Assembly (NCBI GenBank): GCA_039815185.1
Contig: JBCBZT010000015.1
Location: 64,001-128,000 of the forward strand
Direction of reading: 5' to 3'
From: Cyanobacteria bacterium P01_A01_bin.123
Lineage (GTDB): Bacteria > Cyanobacteriota > Cyanobacteriia > Phormidesmidales > Phormidesmidaceae
Length of the DNA: 64,000 nt
The stretch's first letter is position 1, and each line of letters opens with the position of its first letter. Positions 40,881-47,830 of the stretch are shown one piece after another. A model generated the notes under the pieces. The model did not search any database. It was given only the letters and a program-made list of their open reading frames with translations, and was not told the DNA's origin. The position numbers and the translations under genes were made by a program.

Positions 40881-41786
40881 TTACAGTAATCCCTGCTCCT
40901 CTAGAAATTCGCGAGCCACTTCATCCGGTTCACGACCATTGCCAGCCACCTCCCAATTGAGGGTGCTCATGGTTTCATCGTCAAGGAGGACTGTGACGCT
41001 GTTCAGCACCTCAGCAATTTCAGGGTTAGCATCTAGCGTTTCCTGACGAATAAAGGGTGCAACTGGATAGGGAGGCCAGAATTTCTGGTCGTCTTCGAGC
41101 ACCAACAGGTCAAACGCGGCAATTTGGCCGTCGGTGCCATAGCCCGTGGTGACATCGATATCGCCAGTATCCAGACCGCTGTAAAGTAGACCGGGGTCTA
41201 GAGACTTAACCTCAGCAAAGTCAAAACCGCCATAGGTTTCTTTGAGCGCAGGTAACCCATCGCTACGGTCGGCAAATTCTAAGTCAGTGCCAAAAATTAG
41301 ACCACTGGCGTTTGCAGAAATATCACTAACGGTAGTTACCCCCAATTCATTGGCGCGATCTTTGGTCATCACCAGCGCATAAGTATTGTTGAAAGAGGTC
41401 GGATCTAGCAAAACAACGCTGAACTGCTCGACATAGTCAGCTTTGACCTTGTCATACACATCCATCGTAGACATTGCCGGATCATAGGTTTGTTCTAGAT
41501 GTACCAGTAAGGCCGTGCCAGTATATTCAGGATACAGGTCGATTTCACCCGCAATTAGGGCTGCATGGTTTTCGCTAGTGCCGCCAAGGGCATTGTAATC
41601 AGCGTTGTAGCCCGCGTTGTCGAGCACCATTTCAAACATGTGGCCTAGCAGATACTGCTCGGTAAATTCTTTTGAGCCAATTTTGATCTCAGGACCATCT
41701 GATGAGGAACCCCCGCTACAAGCAGATAGAGCCACCGTCAACAGAAGAGCTGTGCTGGTTAGAAGGGTTCGTCTTTGAAACTGCAT
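40881..41786 (-). CDS. Osmoprotectant (betaine/choline) ABC substrate-binding lipoprotein
   Basis: Lipobox LSAC, GSKEFTEQ, YPEYTGT, FNNTYAL and FWPPY (OpuBC/OsmF type). Confidence 0.92.
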   Translation of the reverse strand: MQFQRRTLLTSTALLLTVALSACSGGSSSDGPEIKIGSKEFTEQYLLGHMFEMVLDNAGYNADYNALGGTSENHAALIAGEIDLYPEYTGTALLVHLEQTYDPAMSTMDVYDKVKADYVEQFSVVLLDPTSFNNTYALVMTKDRANELGVTTVSDISANASGLIFGTDLEFADRSDGLPALKETYGGFDFAEVKSLDPGLLYSGLDTGDIDVTTGYGTDGQIAAFDLLVLEDDQKFWPPYPVAPFIRQETLDANPEIAEVLNSVTVLLDDETMSTLNWEVAGNGREPDEVAREFLEEQGLL

Positions 41787-41841
41787 AATCGATGCCTCTT
41801 GAAAAATAGTTTATGGATAGGGAGGGGACAGGGATGGGGGA

Positions 41842-42936
41842 TTAAGGTGCCGCTGCTGTCCGCAATTTTGCAACATTTGCAGTAGCGCGGAAATGATAGT
41901 AACTGATGATCAGTTCAATACCCGTAATCACTGCGATACTCAGAACTGCCCCAATTAACCAAACAAGGCCTAATGAAGGCGTTTGCTGAATCTTTGTGGT
42001 TAGCCCAAACACCAGCCAAACAAAAGCTGCCGCAGCTGTGCCAAAAGTGATCAGTGTAATCGGCCAAGCGTTGCCACTTTCCCCTCGACGGGGCCACAGC
42101 GTGGCTACTAAGCCCAGCACCAGAACTGGGAGCCCTATAGTCCGATACTCAGCGTGTAGTCCGGTGAGCACGACTGGGTCACTGCCAGCGACAGCCTGGG
42201 TTTCCCAGGGGAGGAGGACGCCAAATAACAGCGGCATTGCTGCTACAACGCATAGTAAGCCAATTAGGCCACCGGCCTTGCGCTGAGAGGTACCAATCTT
42301 TAAACCCTTGGGAGTCACCCAAGTCTCTAGCCGACCAAAGGCTTCTTCAAAGTAGAAAGCTAAGATTGTTGCTGGAATGGCCCCCAGCAGCATCACGTGG
42401 TCACGGTTGAGCTGATGGCCTCGTAAAATCAAGTCGCCCAGCCCACCAGCCCCAATAAATCCGCCAAAGGTGGTGCTGGCGACAATGACCACGGCTGAGG
42501 TGCGAATGCCCGCCATAATCACCGCGATCGCGACTGGCAGCTCTACCTTAAATAAGACCTCAATGTCGCGCATGCCCATGCCTCGGGCCGCTTCTTTCAT
42601 ATTGGCATCAACTTGCTCAATGCCGATCAGGGTGTTGATCAACACTGGCAGCGTGCCGATAAACGTCAGCGCCAAAATGGTGGGTGGGCGACCAATGCCT
42701 AGCAGCGGCAAGGCTAGCGCCAGCACCGCCAAAGTGGGAAACGTATTGCCAATTTTGCCCGCGTTGAGCAAAAACTTTCGCAACCAGCCTACCCGCGACC
42801 CCAGAATGCCAAATAAGACGCCCAGGGTCACCGCGATCGCCAGTGCTGTAAAGGTAATTTGCAAATGCTGACTTAGGGCAGTCGTAAAGTCTTGAGAGCG
42901 TTCGATGAAATACGCCCACATGTCTTGAAATAGCAT
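41842..42936 (-). CDS. Osmoprotectant ABC permease with extra C-terminal membrane domain
   Basis: EAA motif KEAARGMGM and GAGGLG, followed by a hydrophobic extension. Confidence 0.88.
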   Translation of the reverse strand: MLFQDMWAYFIERSQDFTTALSQHLQITFTALAIAVTLGVLFGILGSRVGWLRKFLLNAGKIGNTFPTLAVLALALPLLGIGRPPTILALTFIGTLPVLINTLIGIEQVDANMKEAARGMGMRDIEVLFKVELPVAIAVIMAGIRTSAVVIVASTTFGGFIGAGGLGDLILRGHQLNRDHVMLLGAIPATILAFYFEEAFGRLETWVTPKGLKIGTSQRKAGGLIGLLCVVAAMPLLFGVLLPWETQAVAGSDPVVLTGLHAEYRTIGLPVLVLGLVATLWPRRGESGNAWPITLITFGTAAAAFVWLVFGLTTKIQQTPSLGLVWLIGAVLSIAVITGIELIISYYHFRATANVAKLRTAAAP

Positions 42937-42982
42937 CCAACCCCCAATAGAAATTCCAGTCAAAATTGCGATAGATGAATGC

Positions 42983-43672
42983 CTACCCTTGGGTGGCACC
43001 CGGCAAAGACCGCTCAATCTTGCCAATGACAAAGTCAAAAAACACAGCTAGCAACGCTGCCCCGAGTGCCCCAGCCACCACTTTGTCGTTACGTCCGCCG
43101 CCTGCCGCAATCCCTTCAAAAATCAGCTTGCCAAGGCTGCTGGCCCCAAAATAAGAGGCCAGGGTGGCGAGACTGATGGTGGAGACCACGGCAATGCGAA
43201 TACCGGCAAAGATGACCGGCAGTGCTAATGGTAATTCCACTTGCAGCAAAATGCTCCGCTGGGTCATGCCCATCCCCCGCGCTGCTTCGATAATGGCCGG
43301 ATCAACGCCGTCGATGCCCACTGCCGTATTGCGAATGATTGCCAGTAGGGAATAAACGGTGAGGGCGATAACGGCTGGCGTAAAGCCAATCCCCACGATG
43401 GGAATCATCAACCCAAACATCGCCAAACTGGGTACGGTGTAGAGCATCCCTGCCAGCTTGATCACGGGGTCATAGAGCAGCCGCAGGCGGGTAATCAGCA
43501 CCCCTAGCGGCAGGCTAATCAGCACTGAAAAAAACAGGGTCACAAACGTAATGAGCAGATGACCCCATAAAAATTCCAGCACCCGATCTGGGCGACCGAC
43601 CCCTGGCAAATAGTACAGGACACCGTCCTTCAAGCTGATCAGGAATTCCCCTAGATTGGTAATAAAATCCAT
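42983..43672 (-). CDS. Osmoprotectant ABC permease
   Basis: YTVPSLA, IEAARGMGM and VELPLALPVIFAGIR. Confidence 0.9.
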   Translation of the reverse strand: MDFITNLGEFLISLKDGVLYYLPGVGRPDRVLEFLWGHLLITFVTLFFSVLISLPLGVLITRLRLLYDPVIKLAGMLYTVPSLAMFGLMIPIVGIGFTPAVIALTVYSLLAIIRNTAVGIDGVDPAIIEAARGMGMTQRSILLQVELPLALPVIFAGIRIAVVSTISLATLASYFGASSLGKLIFEGIAAGGGRNDKVVAGALGAALLAVFFDFVIGKIERSLPGATQG

Positions 43673-43682
43673 GCTGCTCCTC

Positions 43683-44810
43683 CTAGCGTCCCGTTGGCAT
43701 CGGTTGGGTTTCAGCAATTAATGCCTGGGCATTTTCAACGGTGACCAGACCGAGCAATCGCTGGTGGGGATCAACCACAGGTAGGTAGCGAATGCCGTAG
43801 CTCAGCATCATGGAGAAAGCATCTTTCATAGTGGCTTCTGCTTCGGTGGTAGAAACCAGATGATGCAGCATTGCCTTAGCCTGCTTGCCAGGATGGGTTT
43901 GGGCCTCTTCGAGCCCCACATACCCAGCCAGTCGGTTGGTCTCGTCTGTAATGAACAGGCTATCGACATTATGCGATCGCATTTTGGCTGCCAAATCTGC
44001 CCCACTGTCATTGACGTTGCCCAACAGTGGCGCTTGCTGCATGACCTCACCCACGCGGACTAGGGTTAGCCGCTTGAGACCACGGTCTGCGCCAACAAAG
44101 TCGGCGACAAAGTCATCCGCAGGTCTGGACAGAATATTGGCTGGGGTATCGAGCTGGGCTAGCACTCCCCCAACCTGCAAAATGCAAACGAGCGTCCCCA
44201 TTTTGAGCGCCTCGTCAATATCGTGGGTGACAAACATGATGGTCTTCTTGAGCTGTTTTTGCAGTCGCAAAAACTCATTTTGTAGGCGATCGCGCGTAAT
44301 CGGATCAATCGCCCCAAAGGGTTCATCCATCAGCATGACGGGCGGATCTGCTGCCAATGCCCGTGCCACCCCGACCCGCTGCCGCTGCCCCCCGGATAGC
44401 TGCTTGGGATAGCGATCCCGAAACTGAGCCGGATCCAGCCCCACAATGTCTAGCAGCTCATCGGCCCGTCGATCAATTTTGGCTTTGTTCCAGCCGAGGA
44501 GTTTGGGTACCACGGCAATATTGTCGCGGATGGTGAAGTGAGGGAACAGGCCAATTTGCTGAATGACGTAACCGATACTGCGTCGGAGTTCGACCTGATT
44601 TTGCTTGAGCACATTGCGCCCGCCTACAAAAATCTCACCGCTGGTGGGCTCGATCAGGCGGTTGACCATTTTCATCGTGGTGGTCTTGCCACAACCAGAC
44701 GGCCCAATCACCACGCAGGTCTCACCTTCCGGCACAGACATGGTTAAGTGGCTGACCGAAGGCTGGCTAGCCCCAGCGTAAACCTTAACCACATCATTAA
44801 ACTGAATCAT
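43683..44810 (-). CDS. Osmoprotectant ABC ATPase with CBS pair
   Basis: GPSGCGKTT, LSGGQRQR and MDEPFGAID, with a C-terminal CBS pair. Confidence 0.93.
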   Translation of the reverse strand: MIQFNDVVKVYAGASQPSVSHLTMSVPEGETCVVIGPSGCGKTTTMKMVNRLIEPTSGEIFVGGRNVLKQNQVELRRSIGYVIQQIGLFPHFTIRDNIAVVPKLLGWNKAKIDRRADELLDIVGLDPAQFRDRYPKQLSGGQRQRVGVARALAADPPVMLMDEPFGAIDPITRDRLQNEFLRLQKQLKKTIMFVTHDIDEALKMGTLVCILQVGGVLAQLDTPANILSRPADDFVADFVGADRGLKRLTLVRVGEVMQQAPLLGNVNDSGADLAAKMRSHNVDSLFITDETNRLAGYVGLEEAQTHPGKQAKAMLHHLVSTTEAEATMKDAFSMMLSYGIRYLPVVDPHQRLLGLVTVENAQALIAETQPMPTGR

Positions 44811-44995
44811 CGGGATCAAAATGAATTTCCTCTGTTAGCAACAGGGAGTAGGGCATGACGCTGATACAGCGTCAATGCTTCACAGGAAAACGGTATTTTT
44901 TTGTCCCAGGTTCTACTCCAAGGAATATTGTTTCCAACATTCCAGCAATTTATCGCTGTTTCCAGCATTCTTAGAGATTGGTTAACAACCCTCTG

Positions 44996-45011
44996 TGTAA
45001 ATTCTTTTACA
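44996..45011. promoter_or_regulatory. Candidate NtcA site
   Basis: TGTA-AATTCTTT-TACA matches TGTA-N8-TACA. Confidence 0.45.
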
Positions 45012-45284
45012 CATTTCTCTCATGGTCTAACCTTGAACACTGAATGATAGGCATACAGCGACAACATCGACATAACAACCGTTAGTTTAACACTCAACCT
45101 CTGTAGCAACGGTTTCATGCAGACGATATACAGTTATTTTCGGGGTGTGAAGACATATTTGTAACCATCTGTATCAATACATTACAGCTATACTGATGAA
45201 TTTCTATCACAATGACTACATTGTCAGAGGTTGATTGTTATTTTAGAGCGCTGCTTACTAAAACCCATAGGCTTAATAGGGTAC

Positions 45285-45312
45285 TTGACACTGATTGGAG
45301 AATTGCTTTAAT
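45285..45312 (+). promoter_or_regulatory. Candidate sigma70 promoter of the thr leader/thrS transcript
   Basis: Perfect TTGACA (45285-45290), then TGC-TTTAAT (45304-45312) with a 16-bp spacer. Confidence 0.45.
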
Positions 45313-45343
45313 AGAAATGTGCCGGAGCAAATCTTTTCTGACT

Positions 45344-45406
45344 ATGAACACAGCAACTACCCTGACTACCACTACCCCCTCAACTATTTCCCTAGGAGGG
45401 TTGTAA
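45344..45406 (+). CDS. Threonine-rich leader peptide 1 (MNTATTLTTTTPSTISLGGL)
   Basis: 8 of 20 codons are Thr, including an ACT ACC ACT ACC run; the ORF overlaps the attenuator pairing segments. Confidence 0.85.
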   Translation: MNTATTLTTTTPSTISLGGL

Positions 45407-45439
45407 GGCGCTGTACTGAAATTTAGTCTTACTACTTTA

Positions 45440-45476
45440 ATTGCCCTCCAGATATTCTCTGGGGGGCAATGTTTTT
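45440..45476 (+). terminator. Attenuator terminator 1
   Basis: ATTGCCCTCCAGA-TATTC-TCTGGGGGGCAAT then GTTTTT. The 5' arm CCCTCC can alternatively pair with GGAGGG at 45395-45400. Confidence 0.85.
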
Positions 45477-45526
45477 CTAGCTTTTGTATTTAAGACAGGT
45501 TAACCAGAATGCTTATTTTTCTGACA

Positions 45527-45586
45527 ATGCCGTTTGCAATGAACACGACTACCACTACCCCCTCGATCACGCCTGGAGGGACGTGA
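45527..45586 (+). CDS. Threonine-rich leader peptide 2 (MPFAMNTTTTTPSITPGGT; alternative ATG at 45539)
   Basis: Five consecutive Thr codons (ACG ACT ACC ACT ACC); homologous to leader 1. Confidence 0.85.
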   Translation: MPFAMNTTTTTPSITPGGT

Positions 45587-45614
45587 CGATTGATGGCGCC
45601 TGTCACGCATTTGT

Positions 45615-45643
45615 CCCTCCTGGCCTGGCTTGGAGGGTTTTTT
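45615..45643 (+). terminator. Attenuator terminator 2
   Basis: CCCTCC-TGGCCTGGCTT-GGAGGG-TTTTTT; competes with the antiterminator GGAGGGAC:GTCCCTCC. Confidence 0.85.
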
Positions 45644-45794
45644 ATTGCCTTGAAAACTTAGCCACATTCAGATCTGTAACGCTCCTGAGCTAAAAGCTCA
45701 AGCGTTTTCCCGGGTTGGAACGCGGCGTTTTGCGCGCCAATTCAAGGTTGCAAATCAGATGGGGTTTATAACTCAAACCAAAGGAGCATTGACA

Positions 45795-47021
45795 ATGGCG
45801 GATCACCGTGAACTTGCAAAAGATATGGATTTGTTTCATTTTGAGGCGCATAGTCCAGGCATGGTGTTTTGGCACCCACTGGGACTTCGGCTCTTTCGCA
45901 GCCTGGAAGACTTTATGAGACAGGTTTATCAAACCTATGGTTTTGAGGAAGTGCGATCGCCCATTGCCCTCAATCGATCACTATGGGAACGCTCCGGGCA
46001 TTGGGAAAAATTTCGACAGGGAATGTTTGTCGTCGGCAGTGTAACCGCAGATGAAAATGATGCCTCAGACCTATCTGTTCTCAATCCCGACTATGCGTTG
46101 AAGCCCATGTCTTGTCCGGCCCATATTGCCATTTATCAGTCTCGCAAACGCAGCTATCGGGAAAATCCGATGCGATTAATGGAGTTTGGTATCTGCCATC
46201 GTAATGAATTGTCCGGCACATTATCGGGATGTATGCGGCTGCGGCAATTTGTCCAGGATGATGCCCATATTTTCTGTTGTGAATCTGATGTGCAGCAGGA
46301 AATTAGCAGTTTTCTCAAGATGGTGCAGCAAGTTTATGCGGCCTTTGGTTATGAGCAATTTTCTCTGCAAATTTCCCTTAGACCAGAGCAGCGGCTTGGT
46401 GCCGATTCTCTTTGGGATAGCGCTGAATCGCTGTTAATCAAAGCCGTTGAATCTCTGGGGTACCGCTATCAATTAGCCGCCAACGAAGGGGCATTCTACG
46501 GGCCTAAGCTGGAAATTAGTTTGCAAGATCAGCTGGGGCGATCGTGGCAGTGTGGCACATTTCAAGTTGATTTCAACCTGCCTCAAATGTTTGAACTTGC
46601 TTTTGTGAATGAACTGGGGCAATTAGAGCGTCCCGTCATGTTGCACCAAGCTGTTCTGGGATCGCTGGAGCGCTGGATCGGCATTTTGTTAGAGCACCAC
46701 GGCGGTATCCTTCCAGTGTGGATTGCTCCTGTACAGGTTGCGATCGCGTCGATTTCCAATAAATCAGCCGACTGGGCAGAAATAATTTTTGCTCGGCTTC
46801 AGCAGCTAGGGGTAAGGGTGGAGCTGCATAACCAAGATCGCACCATCAGTAAGAAAATTCGTGAACTGTCCAAATGCAGAATTCCCTTAATTGCGGTGGT
46901 CGGTGAGCAAGAAGCTAGAGATCAAAGGCTAAATCTTCGACGTTTAGGAACCTCAGAACAACAAGACATGAATCTAGCTGAGTTTGAGCAAAAGTTAGCC
47001 GTGCTCTCCAAACCCGCTTGA
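45795..47021 (+). CDS. thrS: Threonyl-tRNA synthetase, short form (catalytic + anticodon-binding domains only)
   Basis: Starts at DHRELAKDMDLF; contains SGHW, LKPMSCPAH, QDDAH, GAFYGPK, WQCGTFQVDF and GSLERW; AAGGAG RBS at 45781. Confidence 0.95.
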   Translation: MADHRELAKDMDLFHFEAHSPGMVFWHPLGLRLFRSLEDFMRQVYQTYGFEEVRSPIALNRSLWERSGHWEKFRQGMFVVGSVTADENDASDLSVLNPDYALKPMSCPAHIAIYQSRKRSYRENPMRLMEFGICHRNELSGTLSGCMRLRQFVQDDAHIFCCESDVQQEISSFLKMVQQVYAAFGYEQFSLQISLRPEQRLGADSLWDSAESLLIKAVESLGYRYQLAANEGAFYGPKLEISLQDQLGRSWQCGTFQVDFNLPQMFELAFVNELGQLERPVMLHQAVLGSLERWIGILLEHHGGILPVWIAPVQVAIASISNKSADWAEIIFARLQQLGVRVELHNQDRTISKKIRELSKCRIPLIAVVGEQEARDQRLNLRRLGTSEQQDMNLAEFEQKLAVLSKPA

Positions 47022-47077
47022 GTTTCTTTGCCCAGATGATGAACTTAAAGCGGGAAATCATTGCTAAATGAGAACTC

Positions 47078-47115
47078 AGAAGTCAGATCTAGTCTCATAC
47101 TGACTTCTAGGTTTT
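47078..47115 (+). terminator. Possible thrS terminator
   Basis: AGAAGTCAG...CTGACTTCT stem followed by AGGTTTT. Confidence 0.4.
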
Positions 47116-47227: not shown

Positions 47228-47830
47228 ATGGACGTCCGCATTTGTTTTATTGGGGATTCCTTTGTGAACGGGACAGGGGATCCGACCTATTTAGGCTGGA
47301 CAGGGCGCGTGTGTGCTGAGGTGGCGCAACAGGGCCATGCGGTTACCGCTTACAACCTAGGTATCCGTCGAGAAACCAGCCTGCAAATTGAGCAGCGCTG
47401 GCCCCAAGAAGTGGTGTGTCGTTTACCCAATGACTGTCAGGGGCGCTTGGTATTTTCCTTTGGGGCAAACGATATGACTGTAGAACAGGGCAGTAATCGA
47501 GTCGATCTGGCAACATCGATTGCTGCCGCCCGACGCCTATTGCAGGCAGCATCCCGCCAGTATCCGGTGCTGATGGTGGGGCCACCTGCGATCGCCGTCA
47601 ATCCTGCCCATACGGATCGAATTACCCACCTTTCAGCTCAGTATGGAGACCTGTGCCACAGCTTAGGCGTTCCCTACTTAGAGACTTGTCGACTGACTGC
47701 CCAATCAGTTCTTTGGTCTGCAGAAGTGCAGGCCGGAGATGGCGCCCATCCCGGTGCTGGAGGATATGGCGAACTGGCAACCCTGGTGAGCAATTGGTCA
47801 GCTTGGCGCGACTGGTTTGATATCGATTAA
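47228..47830 (+). CDS. SGNH/GDSL hydrolase
   Basis: FIGDSF, NLGIR, FGAND and DGAHP. Confidence 0.92.
   Translation: MDVRICFIGDSFVNGTGDPTYLGWTGRVCAEVAQQGHAVTAYNLGIRRETSLQIEQRWPQEVVCRLPNDCQGRLVFSFGANDMTVEQGSNRVDLATSIAAARRLLQAASRQYPVLMVGPPAIAVNPAHTDRITHLSAQYGDLCHSLGVPYLETCRLTAQSVLWSAEVQAGDGAHPGAGGYGELATLVSNWSAWRDWFDID

Follow-up and report, generated by a model that had tools for sequence, protein, structure and literature searches.

A short, threonine-poor gene for threonyl-tRNA synthetase (ThrRS) in Cyanobacteria bacterium P01_A01_bin.123 very probably lies behind two ribosome-mediated attenuators in tandem, which would release this backup enzyme when threonyl-tRNA (Thr-tRNA) runs low, as judged from comparative sequence analysis and folding models. 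The element lies in a 64-kb stretch of contig JBCBZT010000015.1 (the window, to which all positions refer; the contamination estimate for the genome is 6%), where a TTGACA box, leader unit 1, leader unit 2 and the short thrS gene are read in this order on the + strand (Table 1).

We suggest that these parts make up a self-contained cassette, in which one promoter and two serial attenuators precede the gene for an accessory ThrRS. With Thr-tRNA plentiful, a ribosome translating a leader would reach the stop codon and cover the motif GGAGGG, whereupon the motif CCCTCC would build the terminator and the RNA would end near 45475 or 45643. A shortage of Thr-tRNA would instead stall the ribosome in the run of threonine codons, and GGAGGG would take CCCTCC before the 3' arm of the terminator has been made. 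The polymerase would have to clear both units before thrS, and the short ThrRS would then restore tRNA-Thr charging where the housekeeping enzyme falls short. Leader translation, termination, coupling, a multiplicative effect of the two units and the activity of the enzyme are what we infer in this model.

Conservation of the tandem leaders

A preliminary description of this DNA, made from its letters alone, had pointed to two homologous units upstream of thrS, with 8 threonine codons in the first leader and 7 in the second. The translations are as described, and the two units form a direct repeat of 48 nt (75% identity, spacing 183 nt), GGAGGG beginning 9 nt ahead of the stop codon and CCCTCC lying 31–40 nt past it in each. 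When 24 other genomes were picked solely by the presence of the short ThrRS protein (25 with this genome), unit 1 was found in all 24 and both units in 21, the unit 2 of locus L107, which has a shorter threonine run, having been added manually. Both units are also carried by three copies on Acaryochloris marina plasmids. In the reverse direction, 38 metagenome matches to a DNA pattern of unit 2 contained 12 threonine-leader units of this type, each preceded by unit 1 and followed by a thrS start (two of the 12 truncated); the remaining 26 resemble chance. As controls we took the 80 full-length proteobacterial thrS loci among the matches listed, 71 of them with at least 400 nt upstream; none had a threonine-rich open reading frame (ORF) ending in Gly-Gly-x, and 5/80 had any small ORF with four threonines in eight codons. 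An RNA model of unit 2, with which 150 of 1397 candidates from this genome were scored, recovered only the two known units, and over 150 genomes, with few candidates scored in each, five of the six matching genomes were short-thrS loci, the sixth being a weak match (E 0.003) with no thrS.

The coding evidence is of the same kind. In the frame defined by the stop codon, threonine accounts for 183 of the 319 codons of unit-1 leaders (57%) and 182 of the 286 codons of unit-2 leaders (64%), whereas the top residue in any other frame reaches only 37–40%. All four threonine codons occur, with third positions varying most and the first two held. An in-frame start is present in 55/55 units: of the 29 non-redundant unit-1 sequences, 28 have ATG and one has GTG, and all 26 unit-2 sequences have ATG. 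GGAG begins 9 nt ahead of the stop in 69/71 units, nearly all units have one residue only past Gly-Gly, and the peptide N-termini vary freely. The leaders thus look translated. A TTGACA box precedes unit 1 in 36/37 loci, and only 4/34 have one in the interval from terminator 1 to thrS, which fits a single transcript; a consensus promoter scan of the locus made no call on the TTGACA promoter at 45285. Eight near-redundant metagenome loci were dropped from the promoter and codon counts. At the A. marina plasmid loci L162–L165 the first leader starts with GTG and the TTGACA box is displaced.

Every unit (55/55) is closest to a unit of its own type from another genome, and the duplication is therefore old. 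The 18-nt identity between units 1 and 2 in this genome exceeds that at any other of the 34 two-unit loci, perhaps through local conversion or slippage.

Several individual loci depart from the common plan. At L094 (1297–1480) one leader is followed by two terminator hairpins, each with CCCTCC, a one-leader, two-terminator variant; at L108 and L109 (about 1260–1500) unit 1 is intact and unit 2 decayed, which offers a natural single-unit comparison. At L117 and L123 the thrS gene after intact tandem leaders ends within a few to about 33 codons, which fits loss of a dispensable gene or assembly breaks. In an unrelated GC-rich genome, locus L131 (1440–1640, reverse strand) has a tRNA-like gene, then three threonine codons, Gly-Gly-Thr-stop and CCCCTC ahead of a full-length thrS-like gene, an arrangement that may be due to chance.

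Competing RNA structures and the proposed switch

Both units can fold the antiterminator that the preliminary description had drawn, with −18.0 kcal/mol in unit 1 (z score −1.7; 11 of 200 shuffles as good) and −21.4 kcal/mol in unit 2 (z score −3.6; 0 of 200), and both have the U-tailed terminators expected from it. The stem of terminator 1 (45440–45470; 13 bp, −22.8 kcal/mol) is followed by GTTTTT, and that of terminator 2 (45615–45637; −14.1 kcal/mol) by six T. Across loci a hairpin is present in all units and a U-tract, counted as at least 5 T in the tail, in 65/70. The alignments used for covariation took in 32 of the 37 unit-1 and 30 of the 34 unit-2 sequences. Terminator 1 covaries, with 32 two-sided changes vs 13.6 ± 2.7 in shuffles (0/500 as good), and 94% of its cells are paired vs 50–69% when the structure is slid, the structure itself being taken from the alignment tested. 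In the antiterminator, 99.5% of the core cells are paired over 32 sequences, and a 5-bp inner helix starting at the unit-1 stop codon is found in 32/37 sequences, a count made with no shuffle control, TAA/TAG- and TGA-type leaders using different partners.

The folding with masked leader codons that had been proposed gave the outcome foreseen. For 70 units (37 of unit 1 and 33 of unit 2, one duplicate dropped), the nascent RNA was folded with the ribosome footprint masked. With the ribosome stalled on the threonine codons the antiterminator formed in 70/70 models, and with the ribosome at the stop codon the terminator formed in 70/70 and the antiterminator in 0/70. Over the modelled units, unit 1 is balanced (terminator −20.5 vs antiterminator −19.8 kcal/mol) and unit 2 favours the antiterminator (terminator −15.1 vs antiterminator −20.3 kcal/mol); the members of this old pair differ in tuning. 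The attenuation logic of the thrL type proposed in the preliminary description is thus supported, the reading frame, threonine codons, stop position, competing helices, U-tracts and promoter box all being conserved.

The structures that would protect the terminator are less uniform. In unit 1 it is the ACY threonine codons that pair with the Gly-Gly-x-stop codons, and the register varies. The protector hairpin of unit 2 is paired in 92% of cells vs 18–43% when slid, and its covariation, with one-sided changes only, is no better than in shuffles. The pairing is weak and variable, and the protector blocks the antiterminator in the model without a ribosome in 20/37 unit-1 and 3/33 unit-2 cases. 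As to the pairing of a leader segment CCCTC with GAGGG, described earlier as segment 1 with segment 2, we reject it as a conserved feature: CCCTC occurs inside the leader in 3/71 units, two of them being the units here.

A number of observations weigh against tandem attenuation as we have set it out. The antiterminator forms in 17/37 unit-1 and 30/33 unit-2 nascent models even with no ribosome present, and the protector is weak, unlike that of E. coli thr. When the full terminator is present at equilibrium, it wins in spite of a stalled ribosome in 32/37 unit-1 and 20/33 unit-2 models, so that the switch must be kinetic, a trap, while the estimated barriers are small, with medians of 5.5 (unit 1) and 9.0 (unit 2) kcal/mol and 5.3 kcal/mol for unit 1 here. 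The antiterminator core gives no covariation signal because it is invariant. The preliminary description had seen selection on structure in the inner antiterminator helix, and this has modest support only: column-wise covariation is no better than in shuffles, and the energy signal is weak (median z scores −0.5 and −0.9 vs −0.2 in the control). Likewise, its expectation of conserved leaders and covarying helices upstream of short-thrS homologues came true for the threonine-rich ORFs and for terminator 1, but not for the antiterminator. Leader 1 has no clear Shine-Dalgarno sequence and the start of leader 2 is ambiguous in this genome. Three of the 25 genomes have a single intact unit, and the conservation counts are not independent because the loci are related. 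The series arrangement of the attenuators is supported, and the "tight double gate" ascribed to it is a conjecture about two units that are differently tuned.

The equilibrium objection carries little weight, because E. coli thrL, run as a control in the same kind of model, prefers its terminator at 16/17 ribosome positions. Equilibrium folding was accordingly rejected as a test against unit 1.

Searches for known regulatory RNAs gave nothing of this kind. Rfam had no match at gathering level, the weak matches (anti-hemB, PyrR) reflecting generic terminators; a T-box model had no match at E up to 10 within 44800–45850; and the E. coli threonine leader family RF00506 had no match on four cyanobacterial loci, the E. 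coli positive control scoring 122 bits.

A short ThrRS without editing domains and with few threonines

The gene behind the leaders encodes an enzyme that matches TIGR00418 with 456.9 bits (cut-off 383.65) and has only the catalytic (Pfam tRNA-synt_2b) and anticodon-binding (HGTP) domains. The N1/N2 editing domains are absent: the TIGR00418 match starts at profile position 169, there is no N-terminal Pfam domain, and the frame upstream of the gene is open for 47 codons only. The start coincides with that of E. coli catalytic-fragment constructs. The zinc ligands and the ATP-binding and anticodon residues are intact (equivalents of Cys334, His385, His511, Arg363, Arg520, Arg583, Glu600 and Arg609). 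The clade of this enzyme comprises no fewer than 120 proteins with 62–99% identity, the named ones being cyanobacterial.

The preliminary description did not remark that this thrS is an accessory, threonine-depleted paralogue beside three full-length thrS genes. With 6 threonines in 408 residues (1.47%) the protein contains proportionally less threonine than any of the 2295 Met-started ORFs with 350 or more amino acids in the genome (median 5.8%; spurious ORFs included). The median for the short clade is 1.47% (n = 120) vs 3.85% in canonical catalytic cores (n = 82) and 4.1–4.6% in the local paralogues. Threonine is the most depleted residue of the clade and serine the most enriched (1.8-fold); 10 of 12 threonine-rich columns of the canonical enzyme are replaced, and the equivalent of the near-invariant Thr482 is retained. 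An enzyme with so few threonines could be made when Thr-tRNA is scarce and, as it also lacks an editing domain, under the condition that would induce it. The threonine leader and the threonine-poor protein are independent signatures of the same condition.

The clade shows pocket changes. At the positions adjoining two zinc ligands (Asn333 and Arg512) 120/120 short-clade proteins differ from 82/82 canonical ones. At the position of E. coli Gly463, where changes are tied to obafluorin and borrelidin insensitivity (available text of PMC11252418), Ser or Ala is found in 23/120 short-clade and 0/82 canonical proteins; at that of Gly308, whose equivalent sits in the borrelidin pocket (available text of PMC4389257), Arg or Lys is found in 49/120 and 0/82. 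The enzyme of the locus studied here has the canonical residue at all of Gly463, Gly308, His309, Tyr462 and Leu489.

In a FastTree tree of 53 rows the short clade (support 100) joins six other short ThrRS representatives with 1–12 threonines (support 97), apart from the local full-length types, to both of which the short enzyme here is about 41% identical; composition and long branches could inflate the grouping with other short ThrRSs. Counted over the core, the other short representatives (P0129, P0132, P0191, P0224, P0238 and P0270) have 0–5 threonines, and P0224 and P0270, with none, lie in different parts of the tree, which suggests that threonine-free short ThrRSs arose more than once.

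Accessory status and distribution

Of the three further full-length thrS genes in this genome, one is T1-like and two are T2-like by insertions and identities, the labels being those used for Anabaena (PMC4787780). The two T2-type genes (G000:C40:1-1805 and G000:C24:11598-13469) are much alike, which may stem from a true duplication or from contamination, and the copy on C24 has two Zur-like boxes upstream. Another thrS is kept in 23/24 carriers of the short gene, the exception being a genome that is 83% complete. The short ThrRS is patchily distributed, with 14/401 genomes of the class sample and 7/36 of its own family; three copies lie on conjugative plasmids of A. marina, and A. marina MBIC11017 (plasmid pREB2) is a cultured carrier. 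Mutual exclusion of the short ThrRS and T2 was considered and is not seen: T2 is present in 3/14 carriers vs 19/99 genomes of the same families, which is the background rate.

No shared neighbour, trans-editing factor or biosynthetic cluster was recognised among 90 neighbouring ORFs from 16 genomes, and an all-against-all comparison of the flanks showed no conserved gene neighbours. The pREB2 copy of the cassette is surrounded by zigA, cobW, Fur-family, metallothionein, cysS and folE genes and is oriented divergently from a second cysS. In one genome (L168, 6797–7961) the cassette is immediately preceded by two genes on its own strand, one for a HipA-like kinase and one for a DUF3037 protein; HipA-type kinases target synthetases.

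Natural trigger and alternative explanations

A phototroph that makes its own threonine would gain little from an extra synthetase in plain starvation, and a failing housekeeping enzyme is thus the likelier trigger. A ThrRS-specific inhibitor is a plausible natural trigger, though somewhat short of probable; loss of zinc or metal from the housekeeping enzyme is rather unlikely, as is, to the same degree, threonine shortage or general stress, and some other trigger is unlikely. The proposal that the attenuators mainly induce an inhibitor-insensitive ThrRS, a spare resistance enzyme that the inhibitor itself would turn on by impairing tRNA charging, refines tandem attenuation, and we consider it a fair prospect without calling it probable. 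The patchy distribution, the conjugative plasmids and the absence of shared neighbours agree with it, as do the pocket changes at the Gly463 and Gly308 positions and next to the two zinc ligands throughout the clade; the enzyme of this locus, however, keeps the canonical residues at all five pocket positions, and the neighbouring ORFs contain no evident biosynthetic cluster. A backup for zinc limitation, in which a lack of zinc would break up T1, raise the level of uncharged tRNA-Thr and open the attenuators independently of Zur, is a lesser possibility. According to the available text of PMC4787780, T1 dissociates in low zinc, and without T2 charged tRNA-Thr drops 5-fold with tRNA-Glu little changed; the island of zinc genes around the cassette on pREB2 points the same way, and Zur-like boxes lie upstream at 3/41 loci, two of them independent, though taken overall these boxes do not favour zinc loss. 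On the other side, the window has no Zur box (best candidate at this locus with 5 mismatches to the consensus), and among the neighbours in 16 other genomes no zinc-homeostasis genes were recognised. The enzyme retains all three zinc ligands, T2 is found with it at the background rate, and the genome already has two T2-like genes.

Other explanations depart further from tandem attenuation. It is improbable that the units are general sensors of ribosome speed or coupling, their threonine runs serving mainly as an RNA pairing strand: the ACY codons do pair with the Gly-Gly region, and unit 2 reads through by default without a ribosome in 30/33 nascent models, but all four threonine codons are used with the first two positions held and the third varying, and the regulated gene is that of a ThrRS which itself avoids threonine. 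We think it very improbable that the hairpins act on translation or RNA stability, or that the units yield small RNAs or peptides such as double-glycine precursors; CCCTCC resembles an anti-Shine-Dalgarno sequence and the leaders end in Gly-Gly, but U-tracts are present in 65/70 units, a single residue follows Gly-Gly in nearly all of them, the N-termini vary freely, and there are no conserved modifying enzymes nearby. That low-complexity ACC/ACT repeats merely lie by ordinary terminators is refuted by the comparative data: the genome has 33 Met-started small ORFs with five threonines in eight codons, these two included, but unit 1 recurs in all protein-selected genomes with fixed spacing, and the RNA model finds just these two units in the genome.

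Returning to tandem attenuation, an enzyme with no editing domain would release some Ser-tRNA-Thr unless T1 corrects it in trans, which has been shown in the case of T2; this may be a reason for a tight off state and hence for two terminators. A broader hypothesis, which we place on the doubtful side, is that the cassette is mobile and encodes a rescue synthetase that has shed its editing domains and most threonines and has an altered zinc/threonine pocket. This enzyme, one of a wider family of short threonine-poor ThrRSs, would be released by the two-stage sensor on the collapse of tRNA-Thr charging and would either evade a ThrRS-targeting natural product of cyanobacterial habitats or accept serine to keep ribosomes moving.

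Features of the locus

Positions of the features are collected in Table 1. Leader ORF 2 has further in-frame ATGs at 45509 and 45539. The distance between the stop of the last leader and the thrS start is 211 nt here vs typically 92–104 nt at other loci, the repeat element lengthening the spacer. Behind thrS there is a strong inverted repeat at 47070–47110 with no clear U-tract, and a GDSL-lipase gene at 47228 is a non-conserved neighbour. On the other side, some 460 nt of AT-rich DNA separate the cassette from a divergent osmoprotectant ABC transporter operon of the betaine/proline/choline type (40881–44819, minus strand).

Table 1. Features of the short-thrS cassette, with positions in the window
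Feature	Position	Strand	Evidence and remarks
−35 box TTGACA, putative promoter	45285..45290	+	TTGACA 109–151 nt upstream of unit-1 stop in 36/37 loci
Putative (extended) −10 region	45304..45314	+	By eye; register uncertain, spacer 16 or 18 nt; varies more across loci than −35
Leader ORF 1: 20 amino acids, 8 Thr, C-terminal Gly-Gly-Leu-stop	45344..45406	+	ORF translation
Unit 1 segment 2 GGAGGG, 5' arm of antiterminator	45395..45400	+	Partner 45444–45449; nearly invariant, 99.5% of cells paired (32 sequences)
Unit 1 inner antiterminator helix, starting at stop codon	45403..45432	+	Folding; 5-bp partner in 32/37 unit-1 sequences
Putative intrinsic terminator 1 with U-tract; segment 3 CCCTCC at 45444–45449	45440..45476	+	Hairpin folding, covariation
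Leader ORF 2: 19 amino acids, 7 Thr, C-terminal Pro-Gly-Gly-Thr-stop	45527..45586	+	ORF translation
Unit 2 protector hairpin, TCACG-CC pairing over Gly-Gly-Thr-stop codons	45567..45586	+	Alignment pairing
Unit 2 antiterminator, GGAGGGAC paired with GTCCCTCC, and inner helix	45575..45620	+	−21.4 kcal/mol, z score −3.6
Putative intrinsic terminator 2 with U-tract	45615..45643	+	Consensus stem in 30 sequences; at least 5 T of 9-nt tail in 31/33
Dispersed small repeat element in spacer, outside the conserved device	45650..45770	+	About 120 nt; partial copies on about 20 other contigs
Shine-Dalgarno-like AAAGGAG of thrS	45780..45786	+	By eye; AGGAG-like motif before start in the homologues read
Short threonyl-tRNA synthetase, 408 amino acids, 6 Thr	45795..47021	+	TIGR00418, Pfam tRNA-synt_2b and HGTP

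Relation to known systems

A mechanistic counterpart is E. coli thrL (Thr_leader, RF00506), which likewise has a threonine-codon leader ending in Gly codons and a competing antiterminator and U-tailed terminator, and which behaves in the same way in the folding model. It differs from the present element in that here there are two units, the protector is weak, the codons are mainly those of threonine rather than of threonine and isoleucine, and a synthetase instead of biosynthesis would be controlled. Leader-peptide control of a synthetase gene is known from E. coli pheM-pheST, but pheM is a single unit, unrelated in sequence to the leaders described here. Probably the closest functional analogue is thrZ of Bacillus subtilis, a full-length auxiliary ThrRS that stays silent behind tandem T-boxes, which bind uncharged tRNA directly; both systems place a spare ThrRS behind serial terminators for the same signal, but here there is no T-box, the sensor would be the translating ribosome, and the enzyme is short.

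Streptomyces trpRS1 is under the control of a single attenuator. TrpRS1 is an auxiliary, indolmycin-resistant, inducible synthetase (available text of PMC9437257), and resembles what is proposed for the short ThrRS, being a spare enzyme induced upon inhibition of the housekeeping one; it differs in its single attenuator and in that inhibitor resistance has been shown for TrpRS1, whereas for the short ThrRS it is a conjecture. In Streptomyces lividans, leader peptides precede the synthetase genes in thrL-thrS, leuL-leuS, trpL-trpS and alaL-alaS; its thrL, like the leaders here, has cognate codons upstream of an aminoacyl-tRNA synthetase gene, but as far as the available part of the paper goes (PMC8079986) it has two threonines, no clear intrinsic terminator, a single unit and an unrelated sequence. 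Two leader ORFs in one mRNA leader are likewise found in Salmonella mgtCBR (available text of PMC3641672), where they sense ATP and Pro-tRNA; here both leaders would sense Thr-tRNA, each with its own intrinsic terminator. Anabaena T2 is an accessory, full-length, editing-defective ThrRS under Zur control that may rely on T1 for trans-editing (available text of PMC4787780). The two are alike as cyanobacterial accessory ThrRSs without editing of their own, but the short enzyme has lost the editing domains and forms a separate clade, whereas T2 is full length and Zur-controlled. The Gly463 substitution of self-resistance ThrRSs of the ObaO/BorO type is absent from the enzyme here, which has Gly, although relatives have Ser or Ala.

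The preliminary description knew of no such attenuator in cyanobacteria, which agrees with the statement, in the available part of PMC4833913 (2016), that reliable data on attenuation in cyanobacteria are lacking. Neither this leader nor the clade of short ThrRSs was found described in our literature search, which was mostly without subscription journals, and the terms cyanobacteria and thrS are absent from PMC2965389.

The class of the proposed mechanism is classical, and what is unusual is the host phylum, the tandem design and the threonine-poor, editing-less enzyme. Two ribosome attenuators in series for the same signal would be the ribosome-based counterpart of tandem T-boxes. Avoidance of the cognate amino acid is known from biosynthetic enzymes (available text of PMC4209129), and a threonine-poor ThrRS extends it to a synthetase; it may also point to an undescribed ThrRS inhibitor. 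No Rho was found above the cut-off in this genome. Attenuation by a leader peptide depends on a ribosome that keeps up with RNA polymerase, and the element would therefore be a ready-made reporter of transcription-translation coupling and, if the idea of a rescue cassette is true, it would be direct proof that such coupling is functional in Rho-less cyanobacteria.

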